A stretch of 64,000 bases of DNA from NCBI GenBank assembly GCA_964636085.1, contig CAZWPQ010000002.1, positions 9,481 to 73,480 on the forward strand, given 5' to 3'. The position numbers and the translations under genes were made by a program. Source of the DNA: an uncultured Nitrososphaerota archaeon. Its GTDB lineage: Archaea; Asgardarchaeota; Njordarchaeia; Njordarchaeales; Panguiarchaeaceae. Of this stretch, positions 9,507 through 15,173 are shown in pieces (the stretch's first letter is position 1; each line of letters begins with the position of its first letter). Below the pieces are notes generated by a model, which ran no database searches, was not told where the DNA came from, and saw only the letters and a list, made by a program, of their open reading frames with translations.

Positions 9507-10228
9507 ATGGTGAATTCTATGTTTAGTATTCCCCGAATTATGCTTGGAACATCCCCTTTTATTGGTGCTGGCCAGTTCGGTCGAAGGTCTCTGGATTACT
9601 TATCTAGATTTTATAACAAGCCTGACAGGATTGTTGAAATTATAGACGCGTGTTGGGAAACCGGTGTGAATGCTATACAGCTTCTGCCAGAGAAATACAT
9701 AATTGATGCCATCAGTATGTGGGAAAAGAAGAATGGAGAGATAATAACAGTTATATCCTCCATATTTCGCCTAAGGCAGATAGATGATCTCATAAATAGA
9801 TTTGAACACTCTGCTATGTTAGTTCACGCATCTATCGTTGATTACCATGACAAAGATATATTAAATAGATTCCTATCAAAAATAAGAGAGCGGGGCCTCC
9901 CAGCTGGGATTGTGTCTCATACTCCATATAGAACATTATCATGGATAAAAAACTGGGAGATAGACATAGATATTGCTATGATTCCAATAAACAAAATCGG
10001 ATATATGATGGATGCCGACATAGAACGCATAGGGCGATTAATAAGAAAGATTGACTGTAAAGTTATTGCAAAAAAGTTCTTGCTGCTGGCAGAATACCAC
10101 CAAAAGAGGCACTAAAATACATCGCGTCAATCGATTTTGTAGGCTCTGTCGCTATTGGTGTAGCATCCGTTAAAGAAGCCAAAGAAACATTTCCAATCGC
10201 GGTAGAACAGCTAGGACAAAAAGAATGA
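9507..10228 (+). CDS. Conserved hypothetical protein, possibly TIM-barrel-like, that is only continuous if a -1 frameshift occurs at 10070-10076. The 0-frame product stops at 10115.
   Basis: The 0-frame reads ...KIDCKVIAKKFLLLAEYHQKRH* and ends in a junk-like tail. The -1 frame continues from the slip site as VLAAGRIPPKEALKYIASIDFVGSVAIGVASVKEAKETFPIAVEQLGQKE* (stop at 10226-10228). This looks like a genuine protein C-terminus. Confidence 0.6.
10070..10076 (+). other. Slippery heptamer A AAA AAG in the 0-frame (candidate -1 ribosomal frameshift site, or a homopolymer indel)
   Basis: The codons are gcA AAA AAG, with the frame set by ATG 9507. This X XXY YYZ heptamer is identical to the E. coli dnaX slippery site. 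The -1 frame is open only from 10061 onward. Confidence 0.45.
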
Positions 10229-14841: not shown

Positions 14842-15051
14842 ATGTTGACGAGAAAAATCATCCAAAAAATCTTAGCCGAATTCATTGAGGCCTGCAAAGG
14901 AGTGCCTCTCGGCACGATTAAAGCAATTTTATTCGGTTCTGTGGCACGGGGCGATTTTGATATTGATAGCGATATAGACATCCTGGTCGTCTCGACAAAT
15001 ATAAAGGAGGCGAAATGTTTTTTGGTAGGGTTGCTGATGAGTTGTTTTTAA
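14842..15051 (+). pseudogene. Minimal nucleotidyltransferase (MNT-type), N-terminal part only; probably frameshifted or truncated
   Basis: It carries the GSVARGDFDIDSDIDILVV motif (GS-x-x-RG...D-x-D of the NTP_transf_2 fold). The ORF ends after 69 aa with a junk tail. An alternative frame from ATG 15015 gives MFFGRVADELFLKTSNCLTIVV, which resembles the missing C-terminal part. There is no HEPN partner next to it. Confidence 0.5.
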
Positions 15052-15173
15052 AGACTTCTAATTGCCTAACCATAGTTGTAGGATTACTGTTGCTGGGGTC
15101 ATTATGAAGTGTATGGCCTGCTGATATTTTAAGGACAAAACTTTATAGATATTATTGGGCGGTTAGGTGGGAA

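Follow-up and report, generated by a model that had tools for sequence, protein, structure and literature searches.

A gene in the archaeal window analysed here (the whole stretch of DNA, 64,000 nucleotides in length) is split between two reading frames at a run of six A nucleotides that forms part of the sequence A AAA AAG. Our preferred explanation, to which we assign a probability of roughly 0.65, is that a real one-base deletion has turned the gene into a recent frameshift pseudogene or inactivated allele. A previous interpretation of this DNA made from its letters (the sequence-only reading) had offered three explanations for the split: recoding, either by programmed −1 frameshifting or by slippage during transcription; a recent indel in the homopolymer that made a pseudogene; and a sequencing error in the A run. 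It is the second of these that is favoured by the orthologues read at this site, which are single open reading frames (ORFs) and in several instances carry a run that is one base longer.

We recommend annotating the locus as a single frameshifted gene or pseudogene from a conserved archaeal family, as yet unnamed, of predicted TIM-barrel proteins, and not as a gene for a protein of 191–202 amino acids. Beyond annotation, the finding has little significance.

One gene split across two reading frames

The codons at 10068–10076 in the frame set by ATG 9507 read GCA AAA AAG, which confirms that a heptamer of the form X XXY YYZ lies in phase with the 0 frame, as the sequence-only reading had proposed (Table 1). 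That reading had also described an implausible 0-frame tail that ends 13 codons past the heptamer, together with a −1 frame that is open only from 10061 and encodes 50 further well-behaved residues. Both descriptions proved accurate, including in the coding signal of the two stretches. Dicodon coding scores, for which 870 long ORFs from this genome served as the training set, amount to +108 bits for the upstream part (189 codons) and +56 bits for the −1-frame piece (49 codons), which is the highest-scoring part of the gene, whereas the 0-frame tail (11 codons) scores −6.6 bits. Thus, a single gene is split across two frames, and the split is real in the sequence.

The −1-frame piece contains no ATG, GTG or TTG codon, and the ORF listing for that frame is empty. 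This piece therefore cannot be a separate gene, and independent expression of the C-terminal part was ruled out on the same grounds. When the two parts are joined at the heptamer, the product is a protein of 240 amino acids (…VIAKK|VLAAGR…), whereas standard decoding gives 202 amino acids, of which the last 12 are nonsense.

Table 1. Features of the split gene, with positions counted from the first letter of the window
Feature	Position	Strand	Basis	Remarks
Upstream 190 codons, 0 frame, ending ...CKVIAKK	9507..10076	+	ORF and translation; homologues align from residue ~3–8	beta1–beta7 of the predicted TIM barrel
TAA stop in −1 frame (frame open only from 10061)	10058..10060	+	Sequence	
Heptamer A AAA AAG (A6 at 10070–10075, plus G)	10070..10076	+	Sequence	Last base of the Ala codon and both conserved Lys codons; A run exactly six bases; one base short relative to all orthologues
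0-frame tail FLLLAEYHQKRH and TAA (10113–10115)	10077..10115	+	Out-of-frame sequence, without homology	Called product P0003 departs from all homologues exactly at the start of this tail (alignment A1)
−1-frame continuation VLAAGRIPPKEALKYIASIDFVGSVAIGVASVKEAKETFPIAVEQLGQKE, 50 codons, VLAAGR...EQLGQKE, and TGA (10226–10228)	10076..10228	+	Translation, alignment	End of beta7, then alpha7, beta8 and alpha8 (secondary structure from the P0005 model)

A mainly archaeal family with a predicted TIM-barrel fold

Homology searches with the joined 240-residue product recovered 236 homologues of about 230–270 amino acids, with E values down to 1e-87 and with 93–99% of the length covered. The only short entries among them are the called product of this very locus (191 amino acids) and its 202-residue twin from the Logan assembly. 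The family has no established name in the resources that were searched. Pfam profiles gave no match to the joined product at E ≤ 1 beyond noise, NCBIfam profiles gave no match, a precomputed Pfam domain is absent from all 120 homologues listed, and a profile search of PDB sequences returned nothing significant.

A (beta/alpha)8 barrel is predicted with very high confidence (pLDDT 97.2, pTM 0.93) by an AlphaFold (AF2) model of P0005, a homologue with 59% identity, for which 62 homologues were aligned. The top Foldseek matches for this model are aldose reductase and PA4992, a putative aldo-keto reductase (AKR), at TM scores of 0.6–0.7 and 12–18% identity. The model therefore shares the (beta/alpha)8 barrel of the aldo-keto reductase superfamily, which is a remote fold resemblance only, and the Pfam Aldo_ket_red profile does not recognize the sequence. 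Judged from the predicted structure, the gene is a member of an uncharacterized, compact TIM-barrel family of ~240 amino acids that is mainly archaeal. The family, comprising the window gene (9507–10228) and P0004–P0122, is unnamed and widely spread, and its invariant motifs include GTSPF, AGQFG, H..P, P.N and KxLAAG.

Members occur in Bathyarchaeia, Methanobacteriaceae, Methanomethylicia, Nezhaarchaeales, several Asgard lineages and a few bacterial metagenome-assembled genomes (MAGs). Among 41 related genomes, 18 carry the gene, but only one of the four other genomes of the genus does so. This patchy presence, along with the existence of a split copy in another lineage, indicates that the TIM-barrel family is dispensable. 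We observed no conserved gene neighbourhood: the window, the congener and a Methanobacteriaceae locus all have different neighbours, and thus gene context provides no clue to function.

The split copy in the other lineage (L016; G039:C175, 645–1403, minus strand) comes from a distant genome. Its frameshift occurs at a non-slippery site without a homopolymer, about 10 codons upstream of its IAMKPLAAG motif. It is the only split copy among the orthologues, and its break lies elsewhere in the gene.

The break lies in the most conserved motif of the family

The junction between the two parts is seamless in the alignment and falls inside the most conserved motif of the family, I-[AG]-K-K-x-L-A-A-G. 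Alignment A1 shows no variation at K190 and L192, and conservation of at least 90% at I187, A193, A194 and G195. The −1-frame piece aligns without gaps to the homologues and retains the conserved LAAG, AIGVAS and EAxETF motifs.

In the P0005 model, the VIAKK segment corresponds to strand beta7 (E180–184). A break in this strand deprives the 0-frame product of alpha7, beta8 and alpha8, together with the LAAG, AIGVAS and EAxETF motifs that are conserved in the family. According to the model, two of the eight beta/alpha units would be gone, and the truncated product should not fold.

The remainder of the gene shows no decay, and all 20 residues that are invariant in the family are kept. Thus, there are three possibilities: a recent deletion, an incorrect consensus sequence, or continued production of some full-length protein. 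The intactness of the gene fits a very recent mutation, a functional recoded gene and a consensus error equally well. An intact paralogue was not found in the MAG, which is 83% complete.

Orthologues carry the motif in a single frame

The sequence-only reading had suggested asking whether orthologues are single ORFs of the …IAKKVLAAGR… type, and this is what we found for every orthologue that was read at the motif. The motif is in frame at all of the loci where it was read (157 of 174), of which 87 come from relatives and metagenomes and 70, out of 80, from species-representative genomes. A split at the heptamer site was seen in 0 of these 157 loci and in 0 of the 236 homologous proteins. The other feature whose conservation had been in question, the A run itself, gives a different picture. 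In-frame runs of A6–A8 exist at the same spot in about 40 orthologues (15 from relatives and metagenomes, and 25 from species-representative genomes), because the Ala/Gly-Lys-Lys residues are encoded there as GCA/GGA AAA AAR. The split is therefore not conserved, and the A runs of these orthologues are part of an intact reading frame.

Several orthologues reveal how the window sequence could have arisen. Three of them (L025, L048 and L100) read GCA AAA AAG GTT TTA in frame and a fourth (L106) reads GCA AAA AAA GTT TTA, also in frame. The window sequence, GCA AAA AAG TTC TTG, corresponds to either form minus one base.

The gene is also found in G002, the only other genome of the same genus that has it. 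Its copy is an intact 240-residue ORF with GCC AAG AAG ATC at this position, and so lacks the heptamer. ENA assembly ERZ27248328 contains this intact copy from the congener alongside the split one. Searches of proteins, metagenomes and species genomes yielded no relatives above 59% identity except re-assemblies of the same population.

Hallmarks of programmed recoding

A −1 ribosomal frameshift, or slippage by RNA polymerase that adds one A to the transcript, could in principle make the full-length enzyme, with the short product or the ratio of the two products serving a regulatory role, as in E. coli dnaX or S. solfataricus fucA1. Such selected recoding is quite improbable in our estimation. 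Its appeal comes from the perfect in-phase X XXY YYZ heptamer, from the intact downstream piece, and from the fact that either a −1 shift or a transcript with one added A restores exactly …IAKKVLAAG…. There is also archaeal precedent in the fucA1 gene (PMC8211752), and a drift experiment in the laboratory showed that indels in homorepeats of 3–8 bases are often bypassed sufficiently for function (Rockah-Shmuel et al. 2013, PMC3812077). These points are opposed by the absence of the split from all of the loci and proteins compared, as well as by the same-genus copy that avoids the heptamer.

The heptamer is also common in ordinary genes. Among 1,353 long ORFs in this genome, we counted 163 in-frame occurrences, and thus the heptamer cannot be strongly shifty by itself. 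Depletion is only modest: a codon of the form NNA precedes 0.29 of AAA AAG pairs, compared with 0.38 of AAG AAR pairs. The presence of A AAA AAG at this locus is not beyond chance and simply reflects how Ala-Lys-Lys is encoded. Because a conserved Lys-Lys motif in an AT-rich genome needs to lose only one base to create a ‘canonical’ heptamer, the identity of the heptamer alone is no evidence for recoding.

Elements that stimulate frameshifting were sought around the site. A downstream hairpin, which the sequence-only reading had raised as a potential stimulator, is not borne out by pseudoknot-free folding: positions 10077–10150 have a minimum free energy (MFE) of −11.6 kcal/mol against a mean of −13.2 for shuffled sequences (z = +0.61), and a wider context of 161 nucleotides (10040–10200) gives z = +0.43 relative to shuffles. 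By inspection, a Shine–Dalgarno (SD)-like GGAGG stretch is absent from the 20 nucleotides upstream (attgactgtaaagttattgc). There is no rare-codon pause either, as TTC and TTG, which follow in the 0 frame, are both frequent codons (17.1 and 16.6 per thousand).

The tRNA complement also argues against efficient frameshifting. In E. coli, the strong tendency of ribosomes to shift at A AAA AAG is reported to depend on the absence of the CUU isoacceptor (Tsuchihashi and Brown 1992). The genome studied here carries a tRNA-Lys(CUU), on contig C34, in addition to two tRNA-Lys(UUU). Aragorn, which was run without intron-aware settings and reported 29 tRNAs in total, also listed candidates for tRNA-Pyl(CUA) and tRNA-SeC(UCA) that may be false calls.

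Slippage by RNA polymerase is not favoured either. Efficient transcriptional slippage usually takes place on runs of at least 10 nucleotides (PMC3812077). The A run at this locus is six bases long, well below such lengths. Moreover, three quarters of a predicted TIM barrel would have no plausible role. Programmed recoding, the first option offered by the sequence-only reading, fails with regard to conservation of the split, downstream structure, an E. coli-like tRNA-Lys set and rarity of the heptamer, and programmed frameshifting is not supported.

A deletion in the DNA or an assembly artefact

If the A run were miscalled, the DNA would contain seven A nucleotides (or AAAAAAGG) and the gene would be an intact 240-codon ORF from which the consensus had dropped one base. 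We regard an artefact of sequencing or assembly as unlikely, although certain features of the locus would be expected from it. The gene is otherwise perfectly preserved, the break is located at a homopolymer, and the host genome is a MAG of 2.41 Mb in 102 contigs with 83% completeness. Further apparent splits in this genome also coincide with homopolymers, namely a G8 run on C19, a G5 run on C17 and a T6 run in a nucleotidyltransferase gene of the window.

Against an artefact, the same A6 is present at 100% identity in three assemblies, each made with a different assembler: the MAG, a MEGAHIT contig from ENA (k141_181942, L001; 4,015 bp) and a Logan contig of SRR7051321 (L002; 2,412 bp), so that identity extends over 2.4–4.0 kb. 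The three assemblies probably share the same or overlapping read sets. The k141_ contig names and scaffold gaps of 10 N point to short reads, in which errors in an A6 run would be rare.

Genome-wide counts likewise speak against an artefact. The genome has about 4,900 homopolymers of at least six bases, but only a few dozen strict candidates for split genes. The strict scan, which required a coding stretch without a start codon, returned 36 candidates, a few of which were checked by Pfam. A looser scan, in which every homopolymer of at least six bases was examined for frame joining, produced 79 rows that were mostly ordinary gene junctions and was uninformative. The candidates on C56, C61 and C64 proved to be whole domains or neighbouring genes, and we left them out of the tally of splits. 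In addition, at least two verified splits in this genome lie at non-homopolymer sequences (see below), and so real frameshift mutations exist in it.

A different possibility is that the population is heterogeneous and that the gene is a contingency locus, off with A6 and on with A7, of which the assemblies captured the majority ‘off’ form. Variation in homopolymer length is a mechanism of phase variation in many bacteria, and the gene is otherwise intact. Nevertheless, we consider this arrangement very unlikely. Tracts of A6–A7 are short for high-frequency switching, and we know of no phase variation in this TIM-barrel family or in this lineage. Both the Logan and MEGAHIT contigs are unbroken at the site, with the qualification that contigs drop rare variants. 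Furthermore, switching would be favoured by a role at the cell surface or in defence, and the predicted cytoplasmic, AKR-like fold suggests neither.

Origin and consequences of the proposed deletion

In the explanation that we prefer, a real deletion, one base was lost from the A-rich stretch that encodes the invariant Ala-Lys-Lys within I-A-K-K-V-L-A-A-G. Homopolymer runs are where replication slippage usually gives rise to indels. The ancestral form may have been GCA AAA AAA GTT, in which case A7 became A6, or GCA AAA AAG GTT, in which case GG became G. Orthologues are uninterrupted and differ from the window by a single nucleotide of length at the homopolymer. The product of standard decoding, judged by the modelled structure, would lack essential parts.

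The 202-residue product, which is missing the last two beta/alpha units, should not fold, and for this reason the locus is best interpreted as a recent frameshift pseudogene or inactivated allele. The heptamer would then be an unavoidable residue of the Lys-Lys codons and not an evolved signal. Any full-length protein would arise only from incidental, unselected, low-level slippage on the A run by the ribosome or by RNA polymerase. By inference, the base is missing from the DNA itself, the short product has no function, and any bypass would be no more than incidental.

There is a small chance that the gene is nonetheless still expressed, in the sense that a few percent of ribosomes or transcripts slip at the A6 run (A AAA AAG), unaided by a stimulator, and so supply the full-length TIM-barrel enzyme. 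If low-level bypass of this type is true, the locus would be the second cellular example from archaea after S. solfataricus fucA1, in this case from an uncultured lineage, and would add one more data point to the thin record of archaeal frameshifting.

Comparison with known systems

The closest match among systems that have been described is with homopolymer-indel pseudogenes, in which the frameshift is occasionally bypassed at the level of phenotype (PMC3812077; archaeal surveys cited in PMC8211752). The window gene resembles these in having a one-base change in an A run within an otherwise intact, conserved gene, uninterrupted orthologues and a frameshift in an A/T-rich, slippery-like tract, and nothing material differs.

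The fucA1 gene of Sulfolobus (Saccharolobus) solfataricus is the one proven cellular case of frameshifting in archaea, and its full-length homologues differ from it by one A in the run (PMC8211752). Like the window gene, it consists of two ORFs that are put back into one full-length enzyme by a −1 shift at a heptamer rich in A. Frameshifting in fucA1 occurs at A AAA AAT with an efficiency of ~10% in vitro and at very low levels in vivo (PMC8211752, PMC1616953). In contrast with the window gene, fucA1 has biochemical proof, flanking rare CAC codons, a putative stem-loop and a split that is common to two strains (PMC1616953, PMC8211752). No flanking element was found at the window locus, where position Z of the heptamer is G with a cognate tRNA-Lys(CUU), and no second split strain is known.

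The dnaX gene of E. coli has the identical heptamer in the same phase. Its frameshift site is preceded by an SD-like element and followed by a strong hairpin, in a host that has no tRNA-Lys(CUU), and its conserved shift yields the shorter gamma product. By comparison, the window site has no stimulators that we could find, its host possesses the CUU isoacceptor, the site is unconserved, and a shift would be needed for the only functional product.

Transcriptional slippage on A/T runs, as in Thermus dnaX, insertion sequence (IS) elements and the poly-A tracts of endosymbionts, is similar in that one added A restores the frame. Efficient cases differ from the window gene in that they involve ~9–10 or more bases.

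Other frameshifted genes in the genome

Besides the TIM-barrel gene, the same genome contains genes for which Pfam matches verify a break at non-homopolymer sequences, where an error in sequencing would not be a natural cause. A gene for an Fpg/Nei DNA glycosylase has a −1-type frameshift inside its H2TH domain (C30:14824–14836) at AGAGAGAAAATAGGGG. Pfam assigns its pieces to positions 21–109 of 117 in the N-terminal domain and 24–77 of 93 in H2TH. A HEPN gene (C32:10290–10332) is frameshifted at the non-homopolymer sequence GCACACAGGCAG; its pieces span profile positions 2–32 and 27–116, and the joined form scores 98.9 bits. Frameshifts thus affect a modest number of genes in this organism, most of them accessory, and the TIM-barrel locus is one of these.

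Several other loci were noted in the course of these comparisons. A Mutator-family transposase gene (C17:2168–2195) is likely split at its G5 run, and a gene pair that can be joined across the G8 run at C19:37314–37321 is likely another split gene. Within the window, a minimal nucleotidyltransferase (MNT) gene at 14842–15107, which matches Pfam NTP_transf_2 at positions 5–41 of 93 only, ends early by its T6 run. It has a plausible continuation in another frame and may be a further frameshifted accessory gene. Finally, a short ORF that follows a Cas_APE2256 (CARF-type) gene at C64:4341–4384 encodes …EEVEVIVSIAKELSEEFLRGKLERKR. This peptide is similar to the C-terminal stretch encoded by the split Fpg/Nei gene (C30:14824–15153; …SEVKKIVKIAEELSHEFLRRKLNGERIG), and the ORF may be a duplicate gene fragment.
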